DNA of 64,000 bases, taken from positions 44,578,001 through 44,642,000 of the forward strand of contig OZ024743.1 of NCBI GenBank assembly GCA_964016885.1, in the 5' to 3' direction. A model generated the notes under the pieces. It did not search any database, was not told the origin of the DNA, and was given only the letters and a program-made list of their open reading frames with translations. This document shows, piece by piece, positions 1 through 47,011 of this stretch. How positions within the stretch are numbered: position 1 is the stretch's first letter; the number at the start of each line of letters is the position of its first letter. The position numbers and the translations under genes are program-made. Source of the stretch: Eledone cirrhosa. Lineage: Eukaryota.

Positions 1-1784
1 TTTGGGGTTGTTGTGTAGTCTTTTTCTGTGATGCTGGTGTTGTGTTGGATGTAGTGTAATAATTGCTTGTTGTTCAAATTTAATGCTGTGTAGTGTGTAT
101 GGTTTTGGTTGTTTTGTTTTGTTTGCGTTTGTTGTGGGTTTGTTTCTGTTTCGCATTTTGGTGACTTTTGTGGTGTAGGTGATGGTGGTGTTGGGGTTAA
201 TGATGTTGATGGTGTTGGTGTTTGGGTTGATGGGGTTGGTGATGCTGGTGTGGATGGTGGCATATCTGTCCTAACTTTTTTGTTTCTTAGTTTATTTGTT
301 TCCCTCTGTATTTTGTTTTTGGAGGGGGAAGGAAGAGAATTTTTTCTTTTTTGGTTTCTTTTTTTTTTTCCGGATATCGTTTCCCACTCCTCGTCGTCAC
401 AATCTGTCTCCAGTTGTGATAGGCCGGGGAGTGGAAAATCCTCCACAGCCGTTAGTTTTGGTTGTGGTGTGGTGGATGGTGTAGGCGCTGGTGCTAGTTC
501 TGAAGCGTTGGGTGGTGGTGGTGTTGGTTTTGCTGGTGGTGGTAGTGGTGTTGGTTTTGCTACTGTTGCTGGGGTTGTTGCTGTTATAGTTGCTTCTGTT
601 GTTGCTGCTACAGTTGTTGCTGCCATCTCTGCTACTGGTGGTGTTGATGGTTGTGTCACTGGGGTGGGTAGGAGAGGTGGCCTCAACCTTTTAGCCTGAG
701 GGCAGAAAGCCCTTAGGTGGGTTCCTTCACCACAAACGACACACCTAGGTCTTCTGCCCTCGACAATTACCGTGAGGTGGCTGCCGTCAGTGAGGTCTAT
801 TACCTCTGGGATCTCCTCAATGCTTTTTTGGTCCGCTTGGATCAGGAGCTCCATCCCAGATCCGGACCAGTTTTCCTGCTTTTCTTTTGCTACTGCTATT
901 ATTTTCGTGTTGGCTTCGATGCCGGCGAGGACAGCCGCTATTAGCCAGGGAATTTCGATGGCCGGTGGAACGTGGGTCACCCTGATCTTTACGAGTCTCT
1001 GGCCACAATAGCTTGGGACGAGTGTGAGGTCGTCACTTTTTAATGGGGCCATGGAGTGTTCTCTAGCCTCCTCTGGTGTTTCAAAGAACACATCCACGGT
1101 TCCATACTTTTGCCCACGTCTGATGTGGGTTTTTCTTGCCCACACATGTCCCAAAGCTTTTTGGATTTGGGACTCGGATGCCCGTTCCACTCGGCGCGAT
1201 TTTACATTTATTGTTCTATACGACACGGTGCACAGGCGCCGATGCTCCATTTTATTAGGTGGGAGGGTGAAGCTGACCCTGTACCCATCTTTCTTTACCA
1301 TTTGTTTGGCATTTTCTAAATCTTCTTGAGTTACCGTGAACGCTTCGAATTGTTTTGCTACGATGGTGAAACTGAGGGTCGGTTTTATAATGTCATTGTT
1401 GTTGTTGCTATCGTTAATATTAATTTTATTTTCAGTTGTGGTGGTGGTGACGTCAGTCGTCTTTGGTGGGGAAGAGTCCATTTTGCTTGATTTCATTTCG
1501 ACGTCACGAGTTAATTTATTTTTTTCTTCTTTTGTTTCTGTTGTCGCGGTGGTGGTGGTGGTGGTGGTTGTCGCGGTGGTGGTGGTGGTGGAGGGTTTAA
1601 CACCTGCAGTCATTGGTAATGGCGGGAAATGAATGTCTGCCTGAGACAAATTTAAAATATTGCTACTGCTTATATTTTTTTTTGTGTTGGCAAACGTAGT
1701 AACATTTACAATGGTGGTGTCGGTGTGAGGTGTTATTTTGTGAGGAAGGCTTTCAGCTGCTTCGTGCACAGGGGAATTAGCCAT
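1..1784 (-). CDS. Tx1 ORF1 (gag-like, CCHC zinc knuckle, Thr/Pro-rich), partial
   Basis: ATG at 1784 (MANSPVHEAAES...); CVVCGEGTHLRAFC near 700-745 and WETISG near 385 are in the same frame at the points checked; continues past base 1. Confidence 0.75.
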   Translation of the reverse strand, partial: MANSPVHEAAESLPHKITPHTDTTIVNVTTFANTKKNISSSNILNLSQADIHFPPLPMTAGVKPSTTTTTATTTTTTTTATTETKEEKNKLTRDVEMKSSKMDSSPPKTTDVTTTTTENKININDSNNNNDIIKPTLSFTIVAKQFEAFTVTQEDLENAKQMVKKDGYRVSFTLPPNKMEHRRLCTVSYRTINVKSRRVERASESQIQKALGHVWARKTHIRRGQKYGTVDVFFETPEEAREHSMAPLKSDDLTLVPSYCGQRLVKIRVTHVPPAIEIPWLIAAVLAGIEANTKIIAVAKEKQENWSGSGMELLIQADQKSIEEIPEVIDLTDGSHLTVIVEGRRPRCVVCGEGTHLRAFCPQAKRLRPPLLPTPVTQPSTPPVAEMAATTVAATTEATITATTPATVAKPTPLPPPAKPTPPPPNASELAPAPTPSTTPQPKLTAVEDFPLPGLSQLETDCDDEEWETISGKKKRNQKRKNSLPSPSKNKIQRETNKLRNKKVRTDMPPSTPASPTPSTQTPTPSTSLTPTPPSPTPQKSPKCETETNPQQTQTKQNNQNHTHYTALNLNNKQLLHYIQHNTSITEKDYTTTP

Positions 1785-1993
1785 TTTTTTTCAAAGAAAT
1801 TTTTGGATAATAATAAAAGTTAAAATTTTGGGCACAAGGCCCCAATCTTTTTGGGTGTCCTTTTCGGAAAACAATGTATGTGTGCTTATAAACAGTTTAC
1901 AATAAAATTTTCCATAAATGGCAATTTTTAAACAAACGGAAATAACAAACCTTTGCGGAGCTCACGATAATACGATTTCCTACGTAGGTCGCC
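1..1993 (-). mobile_element. Tx1-clade non-LTR retrotransposon copy T1 (5' part: 5'UTR + ORF1; runs off window)
   Basis: Collinear with 23047-25010; 5' end GGCGACCTACGTAG abuts (AAT)n at 1994. Confidence 0.9.
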
Positions 1994-2014
1994 AATAATA
2001 ATAATAATAATAAT

Positions 2015-2810
2015 CATATCGGAGACTGAAGGACTGATTATATCAGCACAAGATCAGTGTCTGCCAACAAAAAATGACCAAGCCAACATAATAAAAAATG
2101 GATGCAACACATTATGCCGTGTATGTAAAAAACAACCAGCGACCATTGATCATATAATTTCATTGTGCAGTCCTATAGCTCCAACCGAATACCTAAACAG
2201 GCATGACAGAGCTGCACAATATATACATTGGATAATGTGTAAGCATTTTGAACTGCCCCATCAAAAGAATTGGTGGGAGCATCAACGACCTCCCATACTT
2301 GAAAAACATCACATCTCAATCTTGTGGAACTTTAGACCGAAAAATAGATGCAAGTAGACCTGATATAATACTGAAGGACTTTAAAAAGAGGGTATGCCTA
2401 CTAATTGATATGTCCGTTCCAATAGACAAGAATGTCCCTATAAAAACATTTGAAAAATTGAGCAAGTATAAAGACCTGGAGATAGAAATTGGAAAAATGT
2501 GGAAATTGAGAACTAAAACAATACCAGTGGTGGTAGACGCTCTAGTAATGATACATAAGGGGTCTAATGATTACTTATCGCAAATCCCAGGAAACCCGCG
2601 TATAGGAGAAATACAAAAGACAGTACTAATGGGAACTGCCCATATACTAAGGCAGATTCTGTCAATATAAGTACATCACAAGTCTAAACACCTAAATATG
2701 CATGTGTGTGTATGTATGTTCTTTCTTGAATATGGCGGACCTTGCTGTCTCTTGAGGTCACTGGTTGTGACTTGGTGATAACTCGTATGAACATGAAGCA
2801 AGATAAATGC
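2015..2810 (+). mobile_element. 5'-truncated R4/Dong family B copy (CCHC + RLE end + 3'UTR)
   Basis: Matches 34650-35452; RHD, RPDII..D and EKLSKY motifs; frameshifted; (AAT)n on both sides. Confidence 0.92.
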
Positions 2811-2811
2811 A

Positions 2812-2842
<31 letters not shown>

Positions 2843-3085
2843 TTTTCTTTATTAACCACAAGGGTTTACATAAATTAGACATTAAGGACAGTACAGGACA
2901 ATACAGGACGGTACAAATGGGCATTTCTGCGTGTAAAAAAAACAGAGGATGTAATAAAATAACAATGAAAAATTCCCCAATAGGGGAGAGACTTCCGAGG
3001 GACATTTGTGGAGAAAGCCCTTTAAAAGGCCACAGTGACCCTGACCACCAGGGCAAGTGCCCTCTCCCAGTTTTCCACCTTTAAT

Positions 3086-6000
3086 TTAAAGACACATACT
3101 CAGAGTAGGCCCATTCACTCGGGCCATACTTATTTCTCTCACCCATCTTTCAACAAAATAATGGGAAGAGAGCACTTCCCTCTCTACCCTGATTTTCCTT
3201 TTCAAATGAAATTTGAAAAAGTTAATCAGGGCATCACCGAAGAGGTAGGTGCTCTCTTCAGCGCTTTCAAACGTGTCCACCATACTGTCCCTTTCGCCAT
3301 GGCCACCAGACAGGTAAAAACTGCCTGCCCTTCCCGGCTAAAGTAAGAGGGCGGGGCAATCCTCAAGATGGACTCAGCTGATAGCTGGATCTGTCCTATA
3401 CGTGACAGCAGGTGTTCGACATAAACCCACAAGTCAGCAATGCTCGGACACTGGACGAGTGCGTGCAGGACGGTTTCGTCGCCCGGCGCGCATCTCGGAC
3501 ATGCCCGCCTGACGGCACCTCCATGCCTGTAGAGTTTATCCCGAACTGGCAAAGCTCCTCGGTAGCACTGCCAGGCCAGCGATTTCTGGAAGTTGTCCAT
3601 AGGCCACGGCCCGAAAGTCCTACCGAAGAGATTGGCTAGTTGATTTTCGTCGACGCCTAAATTTTCTCCAATACGTCGTCGCTCTTCGTCTCCACTAATC
3701 CTCTATAGAAAGCCAAGGTGGAGTTTCCACCGATCACATTGCCCGATTGCTCGAGGGCTGTGAGCGCCTGAAGACATTCCAGTCTCCAAGCGCTCCCTCT
3801 CGGTCTACGCATGACCCAGGACTGGAGACGAGGAGACGAGCGGGGGAAAGACGTTTTTAATGCAAACGGCGACCACACCTGATAACCGTCGAGGAAGAAG
3901 TGGAGACGTCGTAGCCTGAGCGCGTGTCTGCGCATCATCAGCCAAGGCATGCCAGCCCTCCACGTAGCGGGTGTTGACAGCAGATGGACCGCCTGAACAT
4001 CGGAGCGCGTCCCTTCCACAAAAACCGAAAGAGCAAACGCTCCAGCGCAGTCAGGCGGTGCTTAGGACAAGGTACGACAGTCAGGGGGTAGTAGATGACG
4101 GACGCGATGTACACGTTAGCCACCTCCGCTCGACCTTTCAGGGATAGCTTCCACTCCGCCTATTTCTGGGTGAGAGAAGCCACCCTGCTCGTCACCTCGT
4201 CCCAGGTTTTGGTCGTCTGGAGGTCCGGACCGTACCAGAGCCTTAGCAATTTAATTGGTCCGTCCGTCCAGCGCCCGACGACGCTGTTGTACGGCATGGA
4301 CCTGCCTCTTCAGTTGCCGAGCTGCAGGCCCACTGACTTTTCCTGGTTGATCATTGCTCCTGTCACCGCTTCGTATTCTCTTAGTGTAGTGCCGATCGCC
4401 TCGATGTGTTTGGCGTTCAACACCACTACGGTGACATCGTACGCATATGCTGACATGGATCTTCCGCATGCTAGTATGCGCGGGACCACCTCAACGTCTC
4501 CAGTTTGTGCAGTAATGGCTCGAGAGTCAATACGTACAATAGGGACGAGAGGGGACATCCTTGTCGGACCGAGCACATGATATTGAACGGTTCCGAAAGG
4601 TGACCGGTCACTCTCACCACAGAGCAGATGTTGCTGTGGATGGCAGCGATCCAGCCTCTGAAGACGGGCCCAAATCCAGCCGCCTTGAGGACTGCCGCTA
4701 GGTAACGATGGTCGACCCTATCGAAAGCTTTCGACTGATCTAAATTGATCAAAAACACCCACCCGTGCCAGGTTCCCTAGCTACCCTCTCTACGATGTAT
4801 CGCATGAAGTGGAGGTTGTCGTGGATGGAACTGTCAGGAATGGCGCATGTCTGCGCCCCTCCCACCAGACCACCAACGACAAGCGCCAACCTCTTTGCTA
4901 GCACATTGGTCAAAATCTTGAACTCTGTGTTTAGCACAGTTATGGGCCTGAAATTATCTAAGTTATACCCCTTGTTCGGATCCTTTCTGAGCAGTGCTAC
5001 CGCTCCTCGGCTCACAGAGCTGGGAATTCTCCCGTTCTGTTGCCAGTTGCAGTAGACGTCCGCCAAGAGGCCTCCGAACAAGTCTGGCATCTGTACGTAA
5101 AGTTCATAGGGCAGACCATCCAAACCAGGCGATTTACCCCTTGTGCAGCTAGTCATTGCCTCCCGTACTTCAGCTGCTGTTATCCGCTTTTTGCAACACT
5201 CCGCCTCAGTGGCCGAGAGCCGCGGTAGTCCATCGAGGTAGACACTGAAGTCCATCCCTCGACCCGGCCCACCGCTGCCTCCGAACAGCTGAGCGAAGTG
5301 TCGCTGAAAAGCTTCACACGTTTGGCCGGGATCGAGTAGCATGCGCTGGTCGTGGTCCACCAAAGACCGGAGGTGGCTTTGTTGCCACGATTCGCCTCCG
5401 CCACTCGGGCCCATTGAACGGATTTCGGCCCCTCGTATCTGAGAGGACGCACCCTAGCTCTGACAACGCAACCTTCGTGATTTGCATTGAAGAATTGGTC
5501 AAGGGCCAATTTCGCCGCAAGCACCTCGGTCGCGATGCCTTTGCTAAGCGCCTCGTCTAATAACTAACTAGTTCTCCCTCTGCTCTAATTTTCTCTGTTG
5601 CTAAAGCCTTACTAAACCTAATGGATTCTATTCTAATCGCTCTTTTCAGAGCAAACTACCACTTGTTGTTGACGATGGCCCCGTCAACGCCCGCTTAACT
5701 AGTTCGCTAATCCGGTCTCTGTAGGCCTTGCTCGCTGGTAAAGACGCGTTTAGCTTCCAGTAGCCGGGTCCTCGTCTATGAAGCCTATCTAAATCAAGCA
5801 AACATATCACGAATTAGTGATCCGTGTAGCTGACTATCTTGAATTGTGGACAGCCTATGCTAGACCTATCTATTTCCCTACAAAATACTCTATCTAGATA
5901 TGATCTGGATGACCCTATGCGATTTGTCCAAGTCCACATTGGCACATTCGGGAAATCGAATCGGTACCTGTCAGACAGTTCAAAACGCCTGAGCAGGTTG

Positions 6001-6497
6001 GTGAGGCTCTTGCACCCTCCAGCCCTATCCGTTAATCCCACACAGTCCCAGCGTGCATCTAAGATCCCGTTCCAGTCGCCCACTAGCACTAAAGAGCGGG
6101 ACGTTCAAAGAAAGGTCTCCAGACGCCGGAAGAAATCAGGCCGCCCTGCTCCTGTCGGGGCATAGACGGCCACTAGCCTGAAAGCTTGCCCGTCTCCGCT
6201 AGTCACGTCCAGCACCACCAACTTACCCTCTGGGTCCAGGAAGATGGCCCGTATGGCGAGATCCAAACCTCTCCGAAAAAGCACAGCAACTCCTGCCCCC
6301 GATCCAGGACGGCTGGGAGATGCGTACACATCGTAGCCGCCGAAGAGCGGTGCGAACGCCCGTGCTTCGGAGATTCTGGTCTCGCTGATGGCCACTACAT
6401 CTATGTTTCGTGACCTGAGGTCGTTGAGCAGGTGGCCCTGCTTCCATGACGACCCCAAGCCACGCGCATTTATGCTGCCTATTCTGAGTGAGGTCAT
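3086..6497 (-). pseudogene. Tx1 ORF2 (APE endonuclease-RT-zinc knuckle), broken
   Basis: Consecutive ORF fragments 6105-6497, 5814-6089, 5180-5524, 4749-5414, 4471-4758, 3226-3600, 3086-3283. Confidence 0.92.
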
Positions 6498-6532
6498 GTT
6501 TAAAATGGAGTGGAAAAGATGGGAAAGACCAC

Positions 6533-8622
6533 TTACCTTACTTTTCGTAGAGGAAGGATGGTTTCTCCATCCATTTTAACTTGATCGTCTGGTGAAGGGA
6601 CCGTTGAATCGTCCCTTCGGCTGGTCGTCGGCTCTTCTATGAGTATGTCCGAATACACTCTTCGGTTGAGAGTCCGTCCTAGGTCTCTGAAATCACCAAC
6701 TGCGTTGGGGAAGTTTGTTTTAGTGTCTGTATATTGTTTCTGCGCTATTTTTACCAGTCTTATGTTCGTTGGTGTTTTGATTGGTGCTGGTATTATGTTG
6801 TCATGCTGTGAAATGTCTGTGTGTTCAATTATGTAAGTCATTAGTTTCTTGTTGTGTGTATTTATTGCCGTGCATTTGTTTTTCTGGGGGTGGTGTGTGG
6901 TTCTGCTATTTTCTTGTCGTTTTTGCTGGGTGTGTGAGTTTTGTTGTGTTTGCGATGTTGGTGCTTGTGGTGGTGGTGTTGAAGGTGTTGTTGTTGTTGG
7001 CGGTGGGGTTGTCGTCGGAGGTGATGGTGGTGCTAGTGTGGGTGGTGATGGTGCTGGTGGTGTTGCGTCTGTGAGTCTCTTTGCAGTAGCCTTTACCCTT
7101 TTTTCATTTCTTTCCTCCCTTTTCGAAGGCGACGATGCGCTGCTTCTGCGTTTGTGCCTTCTTGCGACCTTTTGCCATCCCTCTCCCACCTCACACTCCA
7201 TGTCTGATTCTGTGAGGTCGGGGAGGGGTACCAGCTCCACTCTTTCACTTCTTGTTGTTGGTGATGTTTGCAGTGGAGTCTCTGTTGGAGCTGCAGTTGG
7301 TATTACTGTTGTTGTTGTTAATACTTCCACTGCTGCTGCTGTTCTTGATTTCCGTGGCGTGGGTATGGGTGTCACGGACCTATCGTTCCTGGTTGCCGCT
7401 TGTCCTGTTGCTGGTAGCAGTGGAGCCGGTTTCGGAAGGAGTGGTTTTTGTTTTCTCCTTTCTCAGGGTCTTCTCGTTGCAGAAGGCCCTGAGGTGAGTC
7501 TTCGATCCACAGCGAAAGCATTTCGGGCGTTTGCCCTCAACACTTATGGGCAGTTGAGTGTCGTTATCGAAGTCTATCACATCCGGGATAGCTTCGATGC
7601 ACTCCTGGTTCGTTTGGATTAACATCTCAATGGAGGTGCCGACCCAATCTTCTCTTACTCTTTTCTGCACTTGCAGTACAGTTGTTTTGTTCTCGCGATT
7701 CCGACGAGGACAGACGCGGCCAGCCAAGAAGGGTCCATCCCGGGGGGGACGTGGGTCAGTTTGACCCTCACAATTTTTTGCCCGCAGTAGGAGGGTACCA
7801 ACACCATTTCCTCGCTCCTTTGCCTCCTGGGGTGTGGAAAAAAGCACTTCTACGGTGGCATATTTCTTGCCTCGGGTGATATGCGTTTTCCGCTGCCACA
7901 CAGACCCTAAGGCTTTTTGTATTTGAGCCTCTGTGGCTCTTTCAACCCTACGGGATTTTGTGCTTACTGTACGGTACGTGACCGTACAGTGCTGTTGGGT
8001 TTCGAAGAACTTTTCGGCTGCCTTGCAGATTGCTCGGTGTCCGGTTTTCGTCACCATCTTCTTCGCTTCCTGTAATTCCTCATTTGTTATGAGGATGGTT
8101 TCCAGGTTCTTTGCGATACCTGCAAATGAGATTGATTTTCTTTGCTGCTGTTGTTGTTGTTATCGTCAGAGCTGCTGTTACTTTTGTTGTTGCTGCAGGT
8201 ACTACGACTATAGCCGCCGCCGCTGTTCCTGTGGTTGTTGTTGTTGTTGCTTCTGCTGCTAATGCTGTTGTTGTTTATGCTGCTGCTGATGCTGTTTTGG
8301 CTGCTACTGTTGTTTACCTTGTCACTGTTGCTGCTGCTGCTGTTATCACGGCTGCTACTGCTATTATTCATGACGTCAGACGAATGAAATGGGTTTTCGT
8401 ATTTACCGCACACCTTTTTCGTCGTTGTCGTCGTCGTGGAGAAATTTTCCCCGCTTTGCTCGTCATTTTTCTTTACTTGCGTCGCTTGCGAAAGAGAAGG
8501 GAGGGGAGAGACACGTTTAGAGAAGGTAGGGAGAGAGACAATCTTCTCTCTGCTGTAGTGACGATTGAGGAAGAAGTCTGAATGAGTGGGAGTGACCTAT
8601 GAAAATTCTTTTTCGTAGCCAT
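6533..8622 (-). pseudogene. Tx1 ORF1 type 2, frameshifted
   Basis: MATKKNF start at 8622; fragments 7380-8057 (CCHC) and 6533-7375 (Pro/Thr-rich, ends LRKVR*). Confidence 0.85.
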
Positions 8623-8835
8623 GTTTTTTTTGTTTAAAATAAATATTGGGCACAAAACCCCAATAAGCGGTTATTTAACCCCAAAGGGCCAAATAACCGG
8701 CAGAAAGAACCCTCTCACAAGGAGGAGGGTGTTTTTGTCTACAATTCGGTTAAAGTTTTAAACAATTTACAATTGTTATAGCTGTCAAAATTTACAATAC
8801 CTTACAGAGCCGAGCCTCCGTCAATCATCGCATTC

Positions 8836-8883
<48 letters not shown>
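8836..8883. repeat. (AAT)16 microsatellite, inter-element target tract
   Basis: Pure AAT run between the T2 5' end and the A1 5' end; similar tracts at 1994, 2812, 13605, 15452, 18927, 19129, 25011, 29609, 31160, 35459, 40290. Confidence 0.98.
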
Positions 8884-8885
<2 letters not shown>

Positions 8886-11800
8886 AGAAGACGCACGAGG
8901 TGGTAGAAGGTCATGAAATCGCTCCCGTCAGTTTTGAATTTTTAACATATTTAAATCATTTGTTAAATAACAACTCTTAGTACAAATGCTACGTAAAGCA
9001 TCCGGCTTGAGCCCCAACCAAATTCGGACCCAAAATATATTGTTATAAGGCTCAAATATTCAAATATTCAACTTTGTATTGTACATTGTATATTCAAAAA
9101 AGAAAATGGCTATAAATGGAAGAAGAACCCGCCTCCCCCTCTGTCTACACTATATAGAACAGCCAAACAACACCAATCTCACCAACACCAGAAACTAGAT
9201 ACACCACCTACCCCATCACCTCTCTGTGTACAAGAAAAACACAACAGCCAGATAACGGCAATTTCACCACCACCACAACCAATCTTAACATAATAAGGAT
9301 AATAATAAATACTATTATTATTGTCCCAAGTCTTAACAAACTGTTTAATCCCAACATTAAGGGAATTTAGGTCAACACACATATACGCGACTAACCCCAT
9401 AGATTCACCGAACGGACATCAGTCCTTCATTGCTACCACCGTTACAACAACACCATCACTGCTGCCATCATTACTACCACTATCCCACCATCACAGCCGC
9501 CACCACTCCTTCATTGCTACCACCGCTACAACACCATCACTACAGTGATACGATCACATCACCACCACCACTGCCTCGGTATCGACATCACCACCACCAC
9601 CACTGTCTCAGTATCGCTACCGCCGCTACTGTCTCCCATTGCTTCTGCTAGTTGCTGCCACCACATTATAGAATTCCTACTAAAAAAGAGGAAGGCATCA
9701 AAATATATAGATAGACTCAAAAGGGAAAAGAAAAAACAAACATCAAAACCAAAACAGCACAGCAACAACAGCAAAAAACGAGAAAAACAAACAGAGAAAA
9801 ACAAAAACAAAAAACAAAAAAAAAACGTAAAGAAAATAAGAATGAAGAGAGAAACAAGCGGACGGACAGAGAAGAGGAGGGAAAAACTAAGTCAGACATT
9901 CGAACACTACATTACAATGAAACTTATGCTTATTCATTTTGGTTTTTTTTTATGCATGTGTGTTTGTTTGTTTATTTGTGTTCGTCTACAGCGTGGTGAT
10001 AATGTCACACAAGTGCCAAATGGAACGGCGCAACCACCGGAAACGGTGAATCCACAGATGGCTATGTAACCATACATTCGCCAATCCTCGATAAGAGTGT
10101 TTAAATATCGAACCTAACCAGTTCGAATAACGGTGAAATGGAGACTAGAACGTCATGTGACAGACTCTCACCCAACAAGTGCTCCCTGGCGCAGCAGCAG
10201 GAACCTGACTGCCAACCAAATACTACTGGTGTTGGAGGAAGAGGAAGAAGGAAAGGGGCCAGAACCAACTGGACGAAAGAATTGAATAGAACTGTTATGC
10301 AATGTTACCTGAAAAGTAACCCCAAGGAGAGGGGCTATAGGAGACGGATGCATAACATCTGGAACGAGATGGGTCTATTTAAATTAGATGAACAAAAATT
10401 GGCCGGGCAGGCTCGGGTAATAAGAACTAATGGATGGATAAGCGAGCTGGAACTGGAGGAACTGAGCAGAGAGAATAGCTTGGAGATGGAGGGTGTAGTA
10501 TGCCAGACAAACGAGCCAGTGGGAAATGAAGGTGAAGAGGTCGAGAGAACGGAGGAACCACCCGAAGCAGACAATGATCTGAATACTGAGATAAATAATA
10601 CCTGGAACAGAGATACAGCCACTGAGGAGATGAATGCTGACGGGCTAGGACAAGATTCGGTTGACATCCTAAATTTAGTGGTAGATGAATTGAACAATGA
10701 TAGTGGGAGACCTATGAACCTAAGATTTGTAGACAGGAAAAAGTTAAAAGAAACAACAGCTAAGGTAAACAAAGTCATCCCATACCTTGGGGCGAGGAGC
10801 CTTCACCAGTGCAACAATATCCTCAAAGCAACAGCAAATACGGTGAGGAAACTACTTGGTATAAAAGCAAGAGGAAACAACAAACAAGAAAGAGCAGAGC
10901 CTTGGTGGAAGAAACGACTGAGTAGTCAAATCAAGGAAATGAGAAATGACATAGGAAAGCTTGAGTCACTACTGAATGGGACACTAAAAAACATAGGCAC
11001 TAAAAATAGACTGGAAATAAAGTACAAAACTAGGAGGAAAAAGCTAAATATTATCATAGAGGAACTGAACCAACGCATTGTAGCAAAGAGTGCAAAAATC
11101 AGGCGATACGAGAACAGAGTCAGTCAGTATAAACAGAACCGCATGTTCGACAACAACCAGAAGATGCTGTTTGGACAGCTTGAGGGGAAAGAAAGAGGCA
11201 ACGACATGTTCCCTGAGGCGGAACAAACTAAAACATTCTGGAGAGGAATATGGGAGCAGGATGTTAGACATAATGACCAGGCAGGGTGGATTGAGACAGT
11301 ACAGAGGGAGATCGGTGAGCAGGCACACCAACAAACTGATTTGAGTATCACAGTTGAAACTCTTAAGGGGCAGGCAAAAAAACTAACCAACTGGAAATCA
11401 CCAGGCCCAGATGGTGTGCAGGGGTATTGGATTAAAAATTTAACATCCCTCCACCCGAAACTGAAGGCCATGTTCAATGACTGCTTGGTGTCGGGTGAGG
11501 TGCCAGAGTGGTTGACAAAAGGTACCACAGTTCTGATAATGAAAGACCGAATCAAGGGTAATTATGTTACCAACTATAGACCTATCACATGTCTGTCCGT
11601 AATGTGGAAACTGTTGACGAGCATTGTGTCTGAGGAAGTCTACCACCACCTCCACACAAACAACTTGTTACCGGACGAACAGAAAGGATGCCGAAAGAAG
11701 TCACGTGGTACAAAGGACCAGTTACTTATTGATAAGATGGTAATGGGGAATTGCAGGAGGAGACACACTGATCTTGCCATGGGATGGATAGACTACAGAA

Positions 11801-13604: not shown

Positions 13605-13659
<55 letters not shown>

Positions 13660-13672
13660 TTAATAATAATAG

Positions 13673-15446: not shown

Positions 15447-15501
<55 letters not shown>

Positions 15502-18926: not shown

Positions 18927-18944
18927 AATAATAATAATAATAAT

Positions 18945-22811: not shown

Positions 22812-22845
22812 GTTGAAATGGAGTGGAAAAGATGGGAAAGACCAC

Positions 22846-24796: not shown

Positions 24797-25010
24797 GATT
24801 TTTCAAAGAAATATTTTGTTTGATAATTATAAAAAGTTTAAATTTTGGGCTCAAGGCCCCAATATTTTTGGGTGTCCTTTTCAGAAATCAATGTATGTGC
24901 ACTTATATACAGTTAACAATAACAAATTTCTATAAATGGCAATTTTAAACAACTGAAAATAACAAACCTTTGCGGAGCTCACGATGATACGATTTACTAC
25001 GTAGGTCGCC

Positions 25011-25089
<79 letters not shown>

Positions 25090-29608: not shown

Positions 29609-29631
29609 AATAACAATAATAATAATAATAA

Positions 29632-31156: not shown

Positions 31157-31159
31157 AAC

Positions 31160-31235
<76 letters not shown>

Positions 31236-31243
<8 letters not shown>

Positions 31244-34200
31244 ACGCACGAGGTGGTAGAAGGTCATGAAATCGCTCCCGTAAGTTTTGTATTTTTAACA
31301 TATTTAAATCATTTGTGAAATAACAACTCTTAGTACAAATGCTACGTAAAGCATCCGGCTTGAGCCCCCAAAAAATTCAGACCCAAAATATATTGTTATA
31401 AGGCTCAAATATTCAAATATTCAACCTTGTATTGTACATTGTATATTCAAAAAAGAAAATGGCTATAAATGGAAGTAGAACACCCCCCCCCCCTCATCTG
31501 TCTACGCTATATAGAACAGCCAAACAACACCAGAAACTAGATACAACACCTACCCCATCACCTCTCGACCCCTCTAGTCTTGGTTGACACTCGTTTTAGA
31601 AGTGGTAACACGAAATGATTACCCCTTGGCGGATAAGGATAAAACGCGACAAAATAAAGTAAATGTCTAATGATAAAATCTCATACCGGATAGGCCGTCA
31701 CCCGGGTAAAAAAGGGCCGCGTCCCTCAGAGAGGGACCAGACTGGGGTCGAAAAATCAGCTAATGGTTCAAACCTTCCCATCACTTCGGAGCTGGAGACC
31801 TCCCATAACCGGAATACTCCTACTGTTGGCCCTCCATGCTCACCACCAAGAAATCCAAAGAAAAAGAGAGAAAAATGGTCAAGGGAAGATAATAAAGAAG
31901 TCCTTGAGGCTTTCTACACTGCCATGTACTACCCATCAAATACATCGAATACAGAACAGACATATATCAACTGGAAAGAGAAACATCCCGAAAACAGAGG
32001 CTATATTGACAGCAACAAACTAGCCAATATACGAAGAAATATTGTAAGAAAAAAGTTACTAACGGATATAGAAATTGATCAGATCAAGCTATTAACACAA
32101 AGTCAGCGAAGGGAAAATGAAACATGTGTCAGTGAAAACGAGGTAAACTGTAACACTTCGAATCCCAGGGTTGGGGCGGAATCACTGGCAACAGAACAAA
32201 TTAAAGAAAGGATCGAAAAAGTGGAGGGAGTGCATGCTCAGGATGAAACTCCAAATGAAAATAATGAGATCGTAAATGATAAAGAGATGAATGAGAATGA
32301 ACTTGCCAACTTGAAGAATGAAATTATGATCGAATGGATGAAAATGAAAGAATCTGACATGGGGCAACGAGATACCCACCCTAAGATCCAGAACTCCAAC
32401 AGAACCAAAAGATAATACACAAGACTAACATAATTCTCAAAAACATTATCATCACAAACAAACTAAACATTACTGATTTAAATCATCTCTATTATGCATC
32501 GGCTAAAGTCACCACTCACTTATGTGGAGTGAAGATGAAAAAACAAAGGAATTCCCACAAGAAATCTACTTGGCTAGAGAACATCAATCGCCAAATAAAC
32601 CTTCTCCGATCTGACATAGAAATTTTAACAAACTATAAAGTAGGTTAACATGTTAAACAAACTAAACTTAGAAAATTGAAAAAAAAAGTACAGTATAAAA
32701 TCAACATGTGACATAGACATGCTGATAGAAATAATCAAGCAAAAAGTGTCGGCCAAAGCTGCTCGTATAAGGTGCTTTGAAAAACGATCTAGATTCTATA
32801 AGGACAATAATATGTTCAAAAACAACCAAAGAAACTTCTACAGAAAAATTGGTAAGTCAACAATAACTGCTAAATCAATACCACCCAAGGAGGAAGTGGA
32901 AGAATTCTGGGAAAAGATCTGGGCCGAAGAAAAAATTCATAACATACATGCCCCATGGATAGACAGACAAATGAAAGATACAGCTCACCTGGAGGAACAA
33001 ACATGGGAAAATATAACAGTTGAACAGTTGCGCTTGGCTCTAAGAAAAACCAGCAAATGGAAATCCCCAAGAAAAGACAAAATACAAAACTTTTGGATAA
33101 ATGCCTTCACAGAGTCTCATGAGCTGTTAGCCCAACTTTACAATGAAATAGTTAAGGAGCCAGAAAAGATACCTTCATGGCTAGTTAACGGCATTACATT
33201 CCTGCTTCCGAAGAATGATGAGACAAACAATCCCAAAAATTACAGACCGATAACTTGCTTGACCACCATGTATAAAATTTTAACATCAGTCCTAACTGAA
33301 TACACATATGACCACCTGATAACAAATGACCTATTTCCCATTGAGCAGAAAGGGTGTAAACGAGGCTCATATGGCTGTAAGGATCAGCTTCTGGTTAACA
33401 AAATGATATTGGAAGATTGTCATAATAGACACAAAAATCTATCGATTGCTTGGATAGATTATAGAAAAGCATTTGATAGTTTGCCACACAGTTGGATTGA
33501 AAAATGTTTAGAGATTTTCAAAGTATCCCCCGTTGTCAGGAGGTTTTTGTCATTCAGTATGAAGACATGGAAAACGACACTCCTTTTGAATAGTGAAACA
33601 AAATCACTGGAAGCTGGAGAAGTTAATATTAAGTGTGGAATTTTTGAGGGTGACTCTTTATCACCGCTTTTATTCTGCATCGCACTTATACCATTAAGTA
33701 AAATGCTCAATGAAACAAATCATGGATATAAAGTCTATGACAAAACCATTAATCACCTGTTCTACATGGACGACCTGAAACTATTTGCAAAAAATGATGA
33801 ACAATTGCAAGGGCTATTATCCACTGTGAAGCAGTTCAGTGATGACATTAAAATGGAATTTGGACTAGATAAATGCGCCAAAGAAACGTTCACCAGAGGA
33901 AAGCTGCTGAAGAGTTCAGACATTAATCTTGATCGGGGGAACGTGATAAGAGAACTTGATCAAGAAAAAACTTACAAATATCTAGGTGTTTGTGAAGGAG
34001 ACGGAATCAAGCACTCGACAATGAGGGAAAGGATAGGGAAGGAATGTTACCGCAGAGTGAGAGCAATCTTAAAAACGGAATTGAATGCAAGGAATAGGAT
34101 CGATGCCATAAACACGCTTGCCATAACAGTAGTAACCTACAGTTACAATGTCATCAACTGGTCAAGCACAGAGATCCATAGGCTCGATACAAAAATTCGA

Positions 34201-35458
34201 AAATTCTTAACCATGCACAGAATGCATCAGCCTAAAGCAGATATAGATATAATATATCTCCCTAGGAAAGAAGGAGGACGTGGGTTAATCCAGTTAGACA
34301 TTGCGTTGAAAACTGCAACAATTGGATTATCTACATATCTAAGGGAATCACATGATTGGATGATCAAACTCGTTTTGAAACACGAAAGCATCAAAAGATC
34401 ATATTCCATTACAAAAGATGCACAAAGATACAGTAATGGACTACAAATTTCAGAAGTCCCATTTACTGCTGAAATGGAAAACACAGAAAAAGCAAAGCAG
34501 GTAAAAGTAACTGCAAAGAAAGAACTGCTACAGAAACTGGCTAAGAAATGGCAAGAAAAGCCTCTGTATGGAAAATACCCAGAGCGAGCTAACAATCCTG
34601 ATGTTGACAAAACTTTAACCCATCAGTGGTTGGCATCCTCTGGACTGAAATCGGAGACTGAAGGACTGATTATATCGGCACAAGATCAGTGTCTGCCAAC
34701 AAAAAATTACCAAGCCAACATAATAAAAAATGGGTGCAGCCCATTATGCCGTGTATGCAAAAAACAACTAGAGACCATTGACCATATAATTTCAATGTGC
34801 AGTCCTATAGCTCCAACCGAATACCTAAACAGGCATGACAGAGCTGCACAATACATACATTGGATAATGTGTAAGCATTTTGACCTGCCCCATCAAAAGA
34901 ATTGGTGGGAGCATCAACCATCTCCCATACTTGAAAAACATCACATCTCAATCTTGTGGAACTTTAGCATCCAAACAGACCGAAAAATAGATGCAAATAG
35001 ACCTGATATAATATTGAAGGACTTTCAAAAGAGGGTATGCCTGCTAATTGATATGTCTGTTCCAATAGACAAGAATGTATCTATAAAAACATTTGAAAAA
35101 TTGAGCAAGGATAAGAACCTGGAGATAGAAATTGGAAAAATGTGGAAATTGAGAACTAAAACAATACCAGTGGTTGTAGGCGCTCTGGGAATGATACCTA
35201 AGGGTTCTAATGACTACTTATCGCAAATCCCAGGAAACCCGCGTATAGGAGAAATACAAAAGATAGTACTAATGGGAACTGCCCATATACTAAGGAAGAT
35301 TCTGTCAATATAAGTACATCACAAGTCTAAACACTAAAGATGCATATGTGAATATGTATGTTCTTTCTTGAACATGGCGGACCTTGTTGTCTCTTGAGGT
35401 CACTGGTTGTGACTTGGTGATAACTCGTATGAACATAAAGCAAGATAAATGCAACTGC
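31236..35458 (+). mobile_element. Family B copy B2 with an A-type 5' leader (chimera)
   Basis: 31236-31566 matches the A leader; from 31567 (GACCCCTCTAG) it matches B. Confidence 0.92.
31663..35313 (+). pseudogene. Family B RT-RLE ORF; N-terminal frameshifts, 864-aa RT-CCHC-RLE part still open
   Basis: YRPITCL, IDYRKAFD, GIFEGDSLSP, FYMDD, CRVCK..H...C, RHD, RPDII..D. Confidence 0.93.
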
Positions 35459-35499
<41 letters not shown>

Positions 35500-35514
35500 T
35501 AATAATAATAATAA

Positions 35515-38500
35515 GGGAAGAAGACGCACGAGGTGGTAGAAGGTCATGAAATATTCAATTTTGTATTATATATTTTGTATTCAAAAAAAGAAAATGGTTA
35601 TAAATGGGAAAAAAACACCCTCTGTCTACACTATATAGAACAGCCAAATAACAGCAATTTCACCAACACCAGAAACTTGATACACCACCTATCCCATCAC
35701 ACTAAATATAACAGCCAGATAACGGCAATTTCACCAGCATTATAATAATAATTACTATTATTATTGTCTCAAATTTTAATAAAATGTTTAATTCCAATTT
35801 TACGGGAATATGTCAACACAAAATATAATAAAAATATATATTAAACATACGAACACAAACTCATAGATACTACATATCAGTAACCACAACGCCACCGCTG
35901 CCACCATCCCACCCCATCCATAATTGCTACCACTATCCCATCGTCGCCGCCACCACTCCTTCAATGCTACCACCACTATTCCCCTATTAACTTGAGAGAG
36001 AAAGGCGAAGGTGGCGGTATCACTAGACAAGGGAGAGGCTAGCAAAATATATAAATAGATTGACTTAGTGACCTGGCCACCGGCCAAACGTCAACATCAA
36101 CAACTATGGGACTGCTGGCTCACCCCTTCCTCACCAACAATATAAAAAGCCCCGGCACCACCACCGACATAGCCAACAACAATAACAGCCAACTACAACA
36201 AAAAGTATATTATATTATTGTAATGCACTGGGTGATTGCTGGCCTTGTGCCTGGAGTGGAGACAATTATTAATAATTTCATTCTTAAGCCACGCAATGCT
36301 CACATTAAGGAACCACTCATGATAATAACAATTTAAAAAAACAACAAAAAGAAAACCCCGTAACCAAGAAATACCGGGATGGCGGCCGGCGGGGAATAGC
36401 CGTGTCTCTAGGGGAGAACGACCCCTCTAGTCTTGGTTGACACTCGTTTTAGAAGTAGTAACACGAAATGATTACCCCTTGGCGGATAAGGATAAAACGC
36501 GACAAAATAAAGTAAATGTCTAATGATAAAATCTCATACCGGATCGGCCGTCACCCGGGTAAAAAAGGGCCGCGTCCCTCAGAGAGGAACCAGACTGGGG
36601 TCGAAAAACCAGCTAATGGTTCAAACCTTCCCATCACTTCGGAGCTGGAGACCTCCCATAACCGGAATACTCCTACTGTTGGCCCTCCATGCTCACCACC
36701 AAGAAATCCAAAGAAAAAGAGAGAAAAATGGTCAAGGGAAGATAATAAAGAAGTCCTTGAGGCTTTCTACACTGCCATGTACTACCCATCAAATACATCG
36801 AACACAGAACAGACATATATCAACTGGAAAAAGAAACATCCCGAAAACAGAGGCTATATTGACAGTAACAAACTAGCCAATATACGAAGAAATATTGTAA
36901 GAAAAAAGTTACTAACTGATATAGAAATTGATCAGATCAAGCTATTAGCACAAAGTCAGCGAAGGGAAAGTGAAACATGTGTCAGTGAAAACGAGGTAAA
37001 CTGTAACACTTCGAATCCCAGTGTTGGGGCGGAATCACTGGCAACAGAACAAATTAAAGAAAGGATCGAAAAAGAGGAGGGAGTGCATGCTCAGGAGGAA
37101 ATTCCAAATGAAAATAATGAGATCGTAAATGATAAATAAATGAATGAGAATGAACTTGCCAACTTGAAGGATGAAATTATGATCGAATGGATGAAAATGA
37201 AAGAATCTGACATGGGGCAACGAGACACCCACCCTAAGATCCAGAACTCCAAACAGAACCAAAAGATAATACACAAGACTAACATAATTCTCAAAAACAT
37301 TATCATCACAAACAAACTAAACATTACTGATTTAAATCATCTCTATTATGCATCGGCTAAAGTCACCACTCACTTATGTGGAGTGAAGATGAAAAAACAA
37401 AGGAATTCCCACAAGAAATCTACTTGGCAAGAGAACATCAATCGCCAAATAAACCTTCTCCGATCTGACATAGAAATTTTAACAAACTATAAAGTAGGTT
37501 TACATGTTAAACAAACTAAACTTAGAAAATTGAAAAAAAAGTACAGTATAAAATCAACATGTGACATAGACATGCTGATAGAAATAATCAAGCAAAAAGT
37601 GTCGGCCAAAGCTGCTCGTATAAGGCGCTGTGAAAAACGATCTAGATTCTATAAGGACAATAATATGTTTCAAAACAACCAAAGAAACTTCTACAGAAAA
37701 ATTGGTAAGTCAACAATAACTGCTAAATCAATACCACCCAAGGAGGAAGTGCAAGAATTCTGGGAAAAGATCTGGGCCGAAGAAAAATTCATAACATACA
37801 TGCCCCATGGATAGACAGACAAATGAAAGATACAGCTCACCTGGAGGAACAAACATGGGAAAATATAACAGTTGAACAGTTGCGCTTGGCTCTAAGAAAA
37901 ACCAGCAAATGGAAATCCCCAGGAAAAGACAAAATAAAAAACTTTTGGATAAATGACTTCACAGAGTCTCATGAGCTGTTAACCCAACTTTACAATGAAA
38001 TAGTTAAGGAGCCAGAAAAGATACCATCATGGCTAGTTAACGGCATTACATTCCTGCTTCCGAAGAATGATGAGACAAACATCCCAAAAATTACAGACCG
38101 ATAACTTGCTTGACCACAATGTATAAAATATTAACATCAGTCCTAACTGAATACACATATGACCACCTGATAACAAATGACCTATTTCCCATTGAGCAGA
38201 AAGGGTGTAAACGAGGCTCATAAGGCTGTAAGTATCAGCGTCTGGTGAACAAAATGATACTGGAAGATTGTCATAATAGACACAAAAATCTATCGATTGC
38301 TTGGATAGATTATAAAAAAGCATTCGATAGTTTGCCACACAGTTGAATTGAAAAATGTTTAGAGATTTTCAAAATATCCCCCGTTGTCAGGAGGTTTTTG
38401 TCATTCAGTATGAAGACATGGAAAACGACACTCCTTTTGAATAGTGAAACAAAATCACTGGAAGCTGGAGAAGTTAATATTAATTGTGGTATTTTTGAGG

Positions 38501-40289
38501 GTGACTCTTTATCACCGCTTTTATTCTGCATCGCACTTATACCATTAAGTAAAATGCTCAATGAAACAAATCATGGATATAAAGTCTATGACAAAACCAT
38601 TAATCACCTGTTCTACATGGATGACCTGAAACTATTTGCAAAAAATGATGAACAATTGCAAGGGCTATTATCCACTGTGAAGCAGTTCAGTGATGACATT
38701 AACATGGAGTTTGGACTAGATAAATGCGCCAAAGCAACGTTCACCAGAGGAAAGCTGCTGAAGAGTTCAGACATTAATCTTGATCGGGGGAACGTGATAA
38801 GAGAACTTGATCAAGAAAAAACTTACAAATATCTAGGTGTTTGTGAAGGAGACGGAATCAAGCACTCGACAATGAGGGAAAGGATAAGGAAGGAATGTTA
38901 CCGCAGAATGAGAGCAATCTTAAAAACGGAATTGAATGCAAGGAATAGGATCGATGCCATAAACACGCTTGCCATACCAGTAGTAACCTACAGTTACAAT
39001 GTCATCAACTGGTCAAGCACAGAGATCCGTAGGCTCGATACAAAAATTCGAAAATTCTTAACCATGCACAGAATGCATCTCCCTAAAGCAGATATAGATA
39101 TAATATATCTCCCTAGGAAAGAAGGAGGACGTGGGTTAATCCAGTTAGACATTGCGTTGAAAACTGCAACAACTGGATTATCTACATATCTAAGGGAATC
39201 ACATGATTGGATGATCAAACTCGTTTTGAAACACGAAAGCATCAAAAGATCATATTCCATTACAAAAGATGCACAAAGATACAGTAATGGACTACAAATT
39301 TCAGAAGTCCCATTTACTGCTGAAATGGAAAACACAGAAAAAGCAAAGCAGGTAAAAGTAACTGCAAAGAAAGAACTGCTACAGAAACTGGCTAAGAAAT
39401 GGCAAGAAAAGCCTCTGTATGGAAAATACCCAGAGCGAGCTAACAATCCTGATGTTGACAAAACTTTAACCCATCAGTGGTTGGCATCCTCTGGACTGAA
39501 ATCGGAGACTGAAGGACTGATTATATCGGCACAAGATCAGTGTATGCCAACAAAAAATGACCAAGCCAACATAATAAAAAATGCCGTGTATGCAAAAAAC
39601 AACCAGAGACCATTGACCATATAATTTCAATGTGCAGTCCTATAGCTCCAACCGAATACCTAAACAGGCATGACAGAGCTGCACAATACATACATTGGAT
39701 AATGTGTAAGCATTTTGACCTGCCCCATCAAAAGAATTGGTGGGAGCATCAACCACCTCCCATACTTGAAAAAGATCACATCTCAATCTTGTGGAACTTT
39801 AGCATCCAAACAGACCGAAAAATAGATGCAAATAGACCTGATATAATATTGAAGGACTTTCAAAAGAGGGTATGCCTGCTAATTGATATGTCTGTTCCAA
39901 TAGACAAGAATGTATCTATAAAAACATTTGAAAAATTGAGTATAAGAACCTGGAGATAGAAATTGGAAAAATGTGGAAATTGAGAACTAAAACAATACCA
40001 GTGGTTGTAGGCGCTCTGGGAATGATACCTAAGGGGTCTAATGACTACTTATCGCAAATCCCAGGAAACCCGCGTATAGGAGAAATACAAAAGATAGTAC
40101 TAATGGGAACTGCCCATATACTAAGGAAGATTCTGTCAATATAAGTACATCACAAGTCTAAACACTAAAGATGCATGTGTGAATATGTATGTTCTTTCTT
40201 GAACATGGCGGACCTTGTTGTCTCTTGAGGTCACTGGTTGTGACTTGGTGATAACTCGTATGAACATAAAGCAAGATAAATGCAACTGT
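35515..40289 (+). mobile_element. Full-length family B copy B3, multiple stops/frameshifts
   Basis: B leader with ~130-bp deletion at 35552; ORF remnants 36516-40144; (AAT)n at both ends. Confidence 0.94.
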
Positions 40290-40307
40290 AATAATAATAA
40301 TAATAAT

Positions 40308-42264
40308 GATTTCTTTATTGGCCACAAGGGCTGACATCAAGAAAAACCTCACAGACGGAACCGGACGGTATGATGTGGGTTTTGTGCGTGTAAATATTTT
40401 TATTATTTATATAAGAAAAGAAAAAAGACATAAAACATATATATATATAAACAATATAATGAAAATTGAAACAATGAAAGATTCCCCAATAGGGGGGAAA
40501 CCTCCGAGGGTTACTCGTGGCGAAAACCACACAAAAGACCACGGCCACCCAGACTACCAGGGCAAGCGCCCTCTCTCAATTTTTCCATCTCTCAAACTAC
40601 AGACGTATATTCAGAGTGGTCCCGTTCACTCGGACCATTCTCGCTACATTCACCCACCTTTCAACAAACTTGCTAGAAAGCAGCACTTGCCTCTCCACCC
40701 TGATTTTCCTCTTCAAGTGAAACTTGAAAAAGTTAATCAGGGATTCGCCGAAGAGGAAAGTGTTTGTCTTTAATCCTTTTAACCTTGTCCACCACACAAT
40801 CTCTTTCGCCATGGCCACCAGGCAGATGAAAACCGCCTGCCCTTCCTCCTCAAAGGAAGATGGCGAGACCATCTGCACAATGGACTCAGTCGACAACCGT
40901 ATCAGTCCCACACGTGACAGCAACTGTTCGACATAGCTCCACAAGTCAGCAATGCTCGGGCACTGAACGAGTGCGTGCACAACGGTTTCGTCGCTATGCG
41001 CGCATCTCGGATAGGCTCGGCTGACGGCATTTCCGTGCCTGTAGAGCTTATCTCGAACCGGTAGCACTGCCAGGCCAGGGATTTTTGGAAGTTATCCATA
41101 GGCCCCGGGCTGAAAGTTTTCCGGAAAAGAGCAAACAGCTGATCTTCTTCGACGCCCAGGATCTCTCCGAGAACGTCGTCGCTCTTCCCCTCCACTAGTC
41201 CTCTATAGAACGCCGAGGAGGATGTTCCACCGATACTGGTGCCCAACTGGGAGAGGGCAGTGAGCGCCTGGAGACATTCCAGTTTCCAAGCGCTATCCCT
41301 CGGTCTTTTTCTGACCCAGGACTGCAGCTCCGTCAAGGAGACGAGCTGTGGAAAAATGTGCCTGGCGAACGGCGATCACACCCGTTCACCATCAAGGAAG
41401 CACCAGAGATGTCGCAACCTCAGCGCATGTTTGCGCATCATCAGCATGGCATCCCCAGTCCTCCACGCAACGGGTGTTGACAACTGATGGACCGTCTGAC
41501 CATTGTAGCGCGTCCCTTCCACAAAAAGCGGAAGAGGAGGCGCTCCATTTTGGTGAGAATTGGGCTGGAGCAAGAGACGACGGTGAGGCGGTAACAGATG
41601 ACGGATGCGATGTACGCATTCGCCACCTCCGCCCGGGAGACAGTTTTCCTCTCGGCCCATTTCTGGGTGAGGGAGGCACCCTGCTCGTCACCTCGTTCCT
41701 GTTTTTCTCCATCTGGAGGTCCGGTCCGAACCAGACCCCGAGCAATTTAACCGGTCCGTCCGTCCAACGCCCCACGACGCTGTCGGACGGCATGGACTTG
41801 CCTCTCCAGGTGCCGAGCTGCAAGCCCACCGGCTTTTCCTAGTTTATCTTTGCTCCTGTCACCGCTTCGTATTCCTTGAGAGCGGTGCCGAGCATCTGGA
41901 CGTGCCTGGTGCTCGACACCACCACGGTGACGTCATCATCCAAGTTCGCGTAGGACGCCCCTCATCGCCCCCAGTTTGTGCAGTAACGGCTCGAGAGCCA
42001 ATACGTACAAGAGGGACGAGAGGGGATAACCCTGGCGGAATGAGCGCATGATGCTGAACGGCTGCGACAGGTGACCGTTCACCCTCACAACTGAGCAGAT
42101 GTCGCTGTACATTGCTGCGATCCAACCCCTGAAAACGGGCCCGAAACCGGCTGCCTCGAGGACCGCCGCCAGGTATCGACTGCTTTGGATTGATCCAAGT
42201 TGATCAGGGCCCCACCCTTGCCAGGTTCCTTAACCACCCTCTATATGATGTATCGCATGAGGTG
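40308..42264 (-). mobile_element. 5'-truncated Tx1 element of a more divergent subfamily (T4)
   Basis: RT end and zinc-knuckle homology to T2/T3; 3' end CCCTTGTGGCCAATAAAGAAA followed by ATT repeats; 5' side abuts (GAA)n. Confidence 0.9.
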
Positions 42265-42282
42265 GAAGAAGAAGAAGAATGA

Positions 42283-42339
42283 TTTTTACTATAGACACAA
42301 GGCCAGCAATTATCCCAGTGTTTTACTGGTACTTTATAC
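42283..42339 (-). mobile_element. SINE 3'-tail fragment
   Basis: CACAAGGCCAGCAATT..CCAGTG..TTACTGGTACTTTAT matches 18960-19000. Confidence 0.8.

Positions 42340-46966: not shown

Positions 46967-47011
<45 letters not shown>

Follow-up and report, generated by a model that had tools for sequence, protein, structure and literature searches.

How do thirteen retrotransposons of three kinds come to lie end to end, with almost every boundary formed by an AAT microsatellite and each kind facing in one direction only? The question is raised by a 64,000-nucleotide stretch of the Eledone cirrhosa genome (assembly GCA_964016885.1, contig OZ024743.1, positions 44,578,001 to 44,642,000; hereafter the window), in which Dong-like long interspersed elements (LINEs) with a restriction-like endonuclease (RLE) occupy one strand, and Tx1-like LINEs with an apurinic/apyrimidinic endonuclease (APE) occupy the other together with a short interspersed element (SINE). 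The array in the window is a long example of chains that are widespread in the genome and not a unique locus. In these dispersed chains, the coding strand of Dong lies on the AAT strand, and Tx1 and the SINE have their sense strands on the ATT strand, an arrangement that was probably set by the strand that is nicked.

The array was resolved by self-BLAST, Pfam and tblastn searches and by translation of the window. Positions 1-42,264 comprise 13 insertions totalling 41,222 bp, namely eight Dong-like elements on the plus strand and four Tx1-like elements and one SINE on the minus strand (Table 1), a pattern whose chance under independent random orientations is (1/2)^13, or ~1e-4. AAT tracts of 18-80 bp, one of them ending in AAG, form 11 of the 12 internal junctions. 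The twelfth is a gap of 578 bp containing an apparently single-copy spacer of ~480 bp, which had no match in 30 Dong A 3′-end loci except the window itself. A depth-8 contig from a public run, which may be the source sample, joins the Dong end to the spacer (14914-15420). Since the spacer is apparently single-copy and bridged by this contig, the array represents two abutting arrays. A dedicated scan of 1-42,400 found no nested insertions. Thus, an earlier reading of the locus made without database searches (the sequence-only reading) was right about the number, order and polarity of the insertions and about the absence of any insertion within the open reading frame (ORF) of another element. 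Its statement that almost every junction is AAT stands apart from the spacer-bearing gap, and its list of insertions is correct as given but incomplete, as the left edge of the array lies ~3.9 kb outside the window and an extra SINE 3′ fragment marks the right edge.

An assembly artefact that joined repeat-bearing reads at AAT tracts has next to no chance of being the explanation. It would be compatible with the finding that no read or contig spans the tested stretch at 14600-19500, a point that weighs against our interpretation. On the other hand, the copies differ by 1-8% and carry private truncations, the Dong end and spacer are bridged as described, Dong-end/AAT/Dong junction types occur in raw reads of two other samples, and polarity specific to each family is not expected from misassembly.

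Window copies are 92-99% alike and have different truncation points, and the closest relatives of most of them, with 94.6-99.1% identity, reside at other genomic loci. Together, these features indicate that the copies are mostly independent insertions; the location of the relatives fits stepwise accumulation. Alternatively, most array growth might stem from a few founder insertions that were multiplied locally by tandem duplication or unequal exchange and passed on their polarity. Such events do seem to occur. For each of the Dong B copies at 31237 and 35513, the nearest relative is the other (99.0% over 780 bp), two near-identical loci (L083 and L084) lie ~98 kb apart, and three head-to-tail Tx1 copies at C1:57.09 Mb (57,085,851-57,103,971), one of them with an intact ORF2, are 96-98% alike and share identical imperfect spacers, suggesting that local duplication also builds arrays. 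As the main cause it is largely refuted and highly unlikely, because most window copies have their nearest relatives elsewhere and differ in their truncation points, and because the same polarity is found at hundreds of unlinked junctions and in unselected DNA.

The latter evidence comes from two kinds of sample. For each element end, the best 30 loci were collected, one being the window, which leaves 29 non-self loci per end and 145 loci overall; these are the youngest best matches and not a random sample, a composition that has to be held against the counts derived from them. Unselected DNA consisted of 57 stretches of 10 kb at round coordinates (570 kb). AAT followed the 3′ end of Dong A at 29/29 non-self loci. 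Tx1 3′ ends lay at AAT in 28/29 cases, the remaining one at an AAG tract ending in AAT, and Tx1 5′ ends adjoined AAT in 29/29. At Dong 5′ ends, AAT was no more than 125 bp away in 27/29. Of the 209 tracts in the 145 loci, 197 adjoin an element, and the contacts follow a strict rule: Dong was sense to AAT in 180 of 182, Tx1 sense to ATT in all 99 and likewise the SINE in 38 of 40. Of the four exceptions, three lie at points where the repeat strand changes within the tract. At changes from AAT to ATT (L027 and L015), the orientation of the adjacent element is reversed as well, with two Dong copies tail to tail in L027; this provides an internal control for strand-based polarity.

Exact-pattern counts extend the rule to the whole genome. 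Among 5,734 Tx1 3′ ends, 4,817 are followed by ATTATT, and at least 4,573 ends belong to a single Dong A subfamily. When the same four end motifs were counted across gaps of 10-40 bp, Dong/Tx1 junctions in opposite orientation numbered 318 tail-to-tail and 5 head-to-head, compared with 0 and 0 in the same orientation; random orientation would give ~40 of each by our estimate from the geometric mean. Unselected DNA obeyed the rule in 24/25 tract-element contacts, the exception being a fold-back SINE piece. There, elements adjoined 20/36 tracts of at least 4 units, 14/19 of at least 6 and 12/14 of at least 10 units, and lay on both sides at 5/36 tracts. Most long AAT microsatellites are thus linked to retrotransposition. 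Further arrays of the same polarity, 10 to ~50 kb long and picked for their clustered matches, are located at C4:172.2, C4:242.1, C1:26.0, C1:35.9 and C1:2.8 Mb. The random flanks or orientations elsewhere that the sequence-only reading had named as its undoing were not seen, and its central proposal, two unrelated endonuclease types acting on opposite strands of one microsatellite, is borne out by end flanks and junction counts.

The same data bear on whether the host maintains the arrays as a satellite-like, centromeric or subtelomeric structure or as a PIWI-interacting RNA (piRNA) cluster, with polarity selected, for example, for antisense trapping. A dense block of at least 46 kb that is almost wholly made of elements, together with other arrays of ~50 kb, is what such a structure might look like. 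Nevertheless, we find it barely credible, as polarity follows the repeat strand and not the chromosome, holds in two-element contacts everywhere, and the locus is interstitial, 44.6 Mb into a 379-Mb contig of the 3.0-Gb assembly. The homogenised tandem units of satellite or centromeric DNA are not found here; the units are heterogeneous and mostly independent insertions. The earlier suggestion of a satellite-like or safe-harbour locus is accordingly unsupported, as the chains are dispersed genome-wide, and the comparison with chromosome ends that it called for has yielded the interstitial position.

Copies that are 5′-truncated cannot bring a 5′ repeat with them, and hence AAT upstream of such copies was a pre-existing target. 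It was present upstream of 44/49 5′-truncated Dong copies, with ATT at 0/49, and internal deletions account for three of the five misses. For 5′-truncated Tx1, ATT (at least 11/12 letters) was found in 9/22 and AAT in 0/22. Full-length Tx1 copies began with a perfect (ATT)4/G junction in 44/46 cases (the slash marks the boundary), and the register is fixed as (ATT)n/G...C/(ATT)n. Dong A ends additionally share AAC-containing tail variants, with AATAACAATAAC in 21/89 ends. An inherited variant of this kind implies that the element itself supplies the first repeats, so target and tail are not alternatives. The view that AAT is target rather than tail therefore holds in its first half, through the truncated copies, and not in its second.

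A repeat-bearing tail also raises the possibility that tail pairing alone sets both target and strand, with loose TpA-like endonucleases and RNA tails of (AAU)n in Dong and (AUU)n in Tx1. The inherited tail variant of Dong A would agree with this, as would the behaviour of the SINE, which lacks a fixed long tail and makes do with the five bases ATAAT, whereas Tx1 is found in long tracts. Moreover, annealing between RNA and target has been discussed for SART1Bm and R1Bm in the available text of PMC7265360. We nonetheless regard tail pairing as an unlikely sole determinant. The Tx1 register is exact, the available parts of publications credit target choice mainly to the endonuclease (PMC4494074, PMC7265360), and Dong occupies TAA repeats in silkworm, mosquito and snail (PMC3812793, as far as its accessible text goes), which implies a conserved determinant. 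Sequence alone cannot separate endonuclease specificity from tail pairing.

In target-primed reverse transcription, the nicked strand primes cDNA synthesis. Thus, the orientation of an element reports which strand was cut. Following this logic, the restriction-like endonuclease of Dong would nick the ATT strand and prime there, whereas the AP-endonuclease of Tx1 would nick the AAT strand, with Tx1 and the SINE primed at AAT/. Each insertion would split the tract and add units through target duplication and a read-through repeat tail, leaving two targets where there had been one. Chains could then lengthen by feedback, without entry of the elements into each other's ORFs, and base pairing between RNA tail and nicked strand would likely sharpen site choice. 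By borrowing the Tx1 protein via a CUUGU stem-loop, the SINE would acquire a Tx1-like polarity and a shorter ATAAT target. No host function would be needed for the arrays. That repeats are left on both sides and that the array can grow, as previously proposed, is corroborated by the flanks at both ends and by AAT upstream of truncated copies. With little more than even confidence, we extend these steps to a strand-partitioned niche of three parties, in which RLE and APE LINEs build each other's targets, most long AAT tracts are their products and landing sites, and Tx1 drives the abundant SINE by means of the CUUGU stem-loop; no publication describing any part of such a niche was found.

The third party differs from the LINEs in its choice of site. 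Of the 52 SINE 3′ ends in the unselected DNA, 5 were adjacent to (ATT)3. Elsewhere, Dong or Tx1 copies contain three inserted SINEs, so insertion in ORFs occurs; both observations show that the SINE is not microsatellite-specific. Young copies were found at ATAAT/ in 26/29 cases and 19/29 carried duplications of at least 12 bp (mostly 12-21 bp). The second copy of the duplication mostly also ends in ATAAT, which means that the site existed before insertion. These target duplications and a 3′ tail shared with a LINE characterise it as a short non-coding element. A CUUGU loop on a 3-4-bp stem, the latter differing in sequence between families, is present at the 3′ end of the SINE and of all Tx1 subfamilies seen. 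Across 10 ends, 87.5% of cells pair, 4/4 pairs change on both sides and 0/500 shuffles reach the score, albeit with a stem picked from the same 10 sequences on which it was scored. As the covarying stem-loop is common to both, Tx1 ORF2 is likely to mobilise the SINE through it. A hairpin resembling the CUUGU one precedes ORF1 in both Tx1 leaders. The SINE head, in which a B-box-like motif is visible, looks tRNA-like; ARAGORN and Rfam scans of the window found no tRNA or family.

The eight Dong copies of the window fall into two families, A and B, with a protein identity of 40%. They have a single ORF encoding a reverse transcriptase (RT) followed by a CCHC motif and a PD-(D/E)xK restriction-like endonuclease, as in the R4/Dong clade, and like members of that clade they insert in TAA repeats. 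A Dong profile built from 44 homologues aligns with solved R2 proteins through RT, CCHC and RLE; with chain 9nl2_A the alignment covers positions 336-1113, including the CCHC and the PD...D...K-Y motifs. The only C-x(1,3)-C motif of the Dong protein P0001 is at residue 952, and the protein is thus without an N-terminal zinc finger. Unlike R2 and NeSL, the R4/Dong clade is not known to have N-terminal zinc fingers. Despite their divergence, families A and B have a common 5′ leader of 400-650 bp (8884-9530, 15500-16150, 25089-25440, 31237-31566 and 35513-35980). Ten of the 29 best matches to the A leader (L122-L150) run on into a B body, and the leader may have been exchanged repeatedly, as the sharing suggests. 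In Dong B, the 5′UTR (untranslated region) contains a fixed 3′ fragment of the SINE between AT-rich flanks (~36205-36270, 16385-16450). Close relatives of Dong B and of the SINE exist in another organism, whose public run was aligned to 14600-19500. AAG runs occur at Dong 5′ ends (31214-31244, 42265-42279 and 42462-42508; also L134, L135 and L140), possibly through slippage of the element's terminal GAAGAAGA or as a second tolerated target.

For Tx1, an intact 1195-aa ORF2 frame at C1:57.10 Mb carries APE, RT and zf-RVT domains, with L1 ORF2p as its closest match. The window copies match it, and their two ORFs with APE, RT and zinc knuckle place them in the L1 group. The assignments to the R4/Dong and Tx1 clades are putative and follow from anatomy and target; none of the homologues returned by database searches bore a clade name. 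A target preference in Tx1 families has been defined by more than 20% of flanks (available text of PMC4494074), a value exceeded both by the 4,817 of 5,734 3′ ends and by the 29/29 5′ ends reported above. Types a (2842-8835) and b (19156-25010) have ORF2 and 3′UTR in common (92% DNA identity) and different 5′UTRs and ORF1s, the latter with 42% protein identity over 400 aa, which suggests that ORF1 and promoter may have been swapped.

Several observations weigh against this account or limit its reach. The SINE at L053 is a real case of wrong orientation. Among the 22 Tx1 truncations, those without a scored ATT comprise seven that on inspection resemble subfamily or deletion breaks, two whose ATT the score missed, three with a short or degenerate ATT and one lacking it. 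Both LINEs are found at AAG runs too. Target duplication was seen directly for the SINE only; duplications are unreadable within a pure repeat, so that the gain of repeats by the LINEs is what we infer. When single 3′ ends were folded, most z-scores fell short of significance. B. mori Dong has a hepatitis delta virus (HDV)-like ribozyme; in contrast, a motif scan of four Dong and three Tx1 leaders, run without a positive control, gave 0 matches. Rfam had no match on the window, and an E-value scan of the leaders returned chance-level matches only. A metagenome scan with protein P0125 found nothing, and one with the Tx1 alignment gave 64 distant loci, 15 of which were inspected and had 0 ATT-flanked 3′ ends. 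The ATT target is hence known here for Tx1 of a single genome, and these 15 distant loci do not support wider conservation.

Table 1. Elements, junctions and array remnants in the window (positions relative to its first nucleotide)
Feature	Position	Strand	Remarks
Tx1-like LINE, 5′ part of full-length copy (type-b 5′UTR and ORF1)	1-1993	-	ORF1 frame 3-1790; rest extends ~3.9 kb leftwards to AAT tract
(AAT)7 junction	1994-2014		
Dong family B, 5′-truncated	2015-2811	+	
(AAT)10 tail-to-tail junction	2812-2841		
Tx1-like LINE, full-length, type-a 5′UTR and ORF1	2842-8835	-	ORF2 with APE, RT, zinc knuckle; stops and frameshifts; 3′ CUUGU stem-loop
(AAT)16 head-to-head junction	8836-8883		
Dong family A, full-length, intact 1141-aa frame 10105-13530	8884-13604	+	RT, CCHC, restriction-like endonuclease
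AAT tract, 66 bp	13605-13670		
Dong A, 5′-truncated	13671-14934	+	
Degenerate AAT edge, ~480-bp spacer, (CAA)7(TAA)17	14935-15499		
Dong B with ~1.5 kb internal deletion; SINE 3′ fragment in 5′UTR	about 15500-18926	+	
(AAT)6 junction	18927-18944		
SINE, 184 bp, B-box-like head motif, 3′ CUUGU stem-loop as in Tx1	18945-19128	-	
(AAT)9 junction	19129-19155		
Tx1-like LINE, full-length, type-b ORF1, broken	19156-25010	-	Shares the ORF2 lineage of type a (92% DNA)
Head-to-head junction, 78-bp AAT tract	25011-25088		
Dong A, full-length, broken	25089-29608	+	
AATAAC(AAT)6 junction	29609-29632		
Dong A of more diverged subfamily, 5′-truncated	29633-31156	+	
(AAT)18 then AAG run	31157-31236		
Dong B, A-type leader, 5′UTR deletion, open 877-aa frame 32680-35313	31237-35458	+	
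AAT tract, 54 bp	35459-35512		
Dong B, leader deletion, broken	35513-40289	+	
(AAT)6 tail-to-tail junction	40290-40307		
Tx1-like, 5′-truncated, third subfamily (76% DNA to type a)	40308-42264	-	
(GAA)5 and SINE 3′ fragment (about 42,281-42,337, after AAG tract); right array edge	42265-42337	-	
Older decayed array, same polarity: AAT, SINE(-), Tx1(-), Dong(+), AAT, SINE(-), AAT	57074-60183		

Outside the main array, a 220-bp repeated element that is frequent in unselected DNA sits inside an old Dong fragment (~59548-59770). Fold-back (palindromic) elements resembling miniature inverted-repeat transposable elements (MITEs) are located at 43960-44329, 46715-46971 and 63294-63641, with an inverted identity of up to 94%. 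A low-complexity CAC/ACC expansion of 7 kb, lying ~7.5-14.6 kb to the left of the window, has stop-free frames and adjoins an older Tx1 fragment; the long open frames there were rejected as genes, being a product of this expansion. Elsewhere, the long frames L151:7792-9438 and L161:3265-5709 resemble Penelope-type RT elements, with a GIY-YIG-like motif and, in L161 only, a weak RVT_1 match.

The natural pair of an APE and an RLE element invites the question of how one 3-bp repeat is read from opposite strands, and of how much endonuclease and RNA tail each contribute to site choice. It adds (ATT)n to the targets found for Tx1-like LINEs, and provides an abundant SINE (52 3′ ends in 570 kb) with a proposed partner LINE and a testable minimal recognition hairpin. 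New copies landing in such chains would probably be missed by short-read insertion callers, which may be relevant to the report of low Dong activity in an octopus (available text of PMC9115989), if the genome studied here is that of a relative. In coleoids, Dong-R4 and L1-Tx1 are described as expanded or recently active, and the accessible parts of these papers do not mention a target (PMC13282606, PMC8967140, PMC9115989).

Each ingredient of the system has a precedent, and Dong on TAA has already been published; the division of one microsatellite between RLE and APE strands was not found in print. No report of an ATT-specific Tx1 or of mixed Dong/Tx1 arrays was found in the accessible literature, although Repbase Reports, Kojima and Fujiwara 2004 or figure 3 and the supplements of PMC4494074 could hold one. 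Among known systems, Dong of Bombyx mori, DongAg and DongBg resemble the elements described here in having a single ORF with RT, C-terminal CCHC and RLE and in targeting TAA/AAT repeats (PMC3812793, available text), and in B. mori the TAA repeats likewise precede the element on the sense strand (PMC3774820, available text). What distinguishes the present elements are the copy number (at least 4,573 for the end of one subfamily), the two families with a common 5′ leader and the chains mixed with an APE element. Tx1 families target (TC)n, (TTC)n, (TTCC)n and (TTTC)n (PMC4494074) as well as telomeres (PMC10088271), according to the accessible text. Kibi on (TC)n, Koshi on (TTC)n, the crocodilian (TTCC)n/(TTTC)n families and the telomeric Tx1-1_ACar are, like Tx1 here, two-ORF APE-RT elements of the L1 group that insert in simple repeats; unlike them, the present elements use (ATT)n, occupy tracts in common with an RLE element and end in a CUUGU stem-loop and a repeat tail.

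For the SINE, the closest parallel is SINEU-3 with Tx1-Mar in crocodilians, likewise a SINE that is probably mobilised by Tx1, with a common target preference and tandem insertions (available text of PMC4494074). Compensatory 3′ stem-loops mark LINE partners in stringent LINE-SINE pairs, as the accessible part of PMC4824008 describes. The head of SINEU-3 is derived from a small nuclear RNA (snRNA), whereas the head here appears tRNA-like, the link is a 4-bp stem with a CUUGU loop, and the target of the SINE is looser than that of its partner. The arrangement as a whole recalls TRAS and SART in insect (TTAGG)n, two families of LINEs that enter the same repeat in opposite orientations and build arrays there (PMC7265360, PMC10088271, in their available text). 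Both of these belong to the R1 clade, have an APE and occupy telomeres, in contrast to the RLE and APE elements that share dispersed, interstitial microsatellites in this genome.

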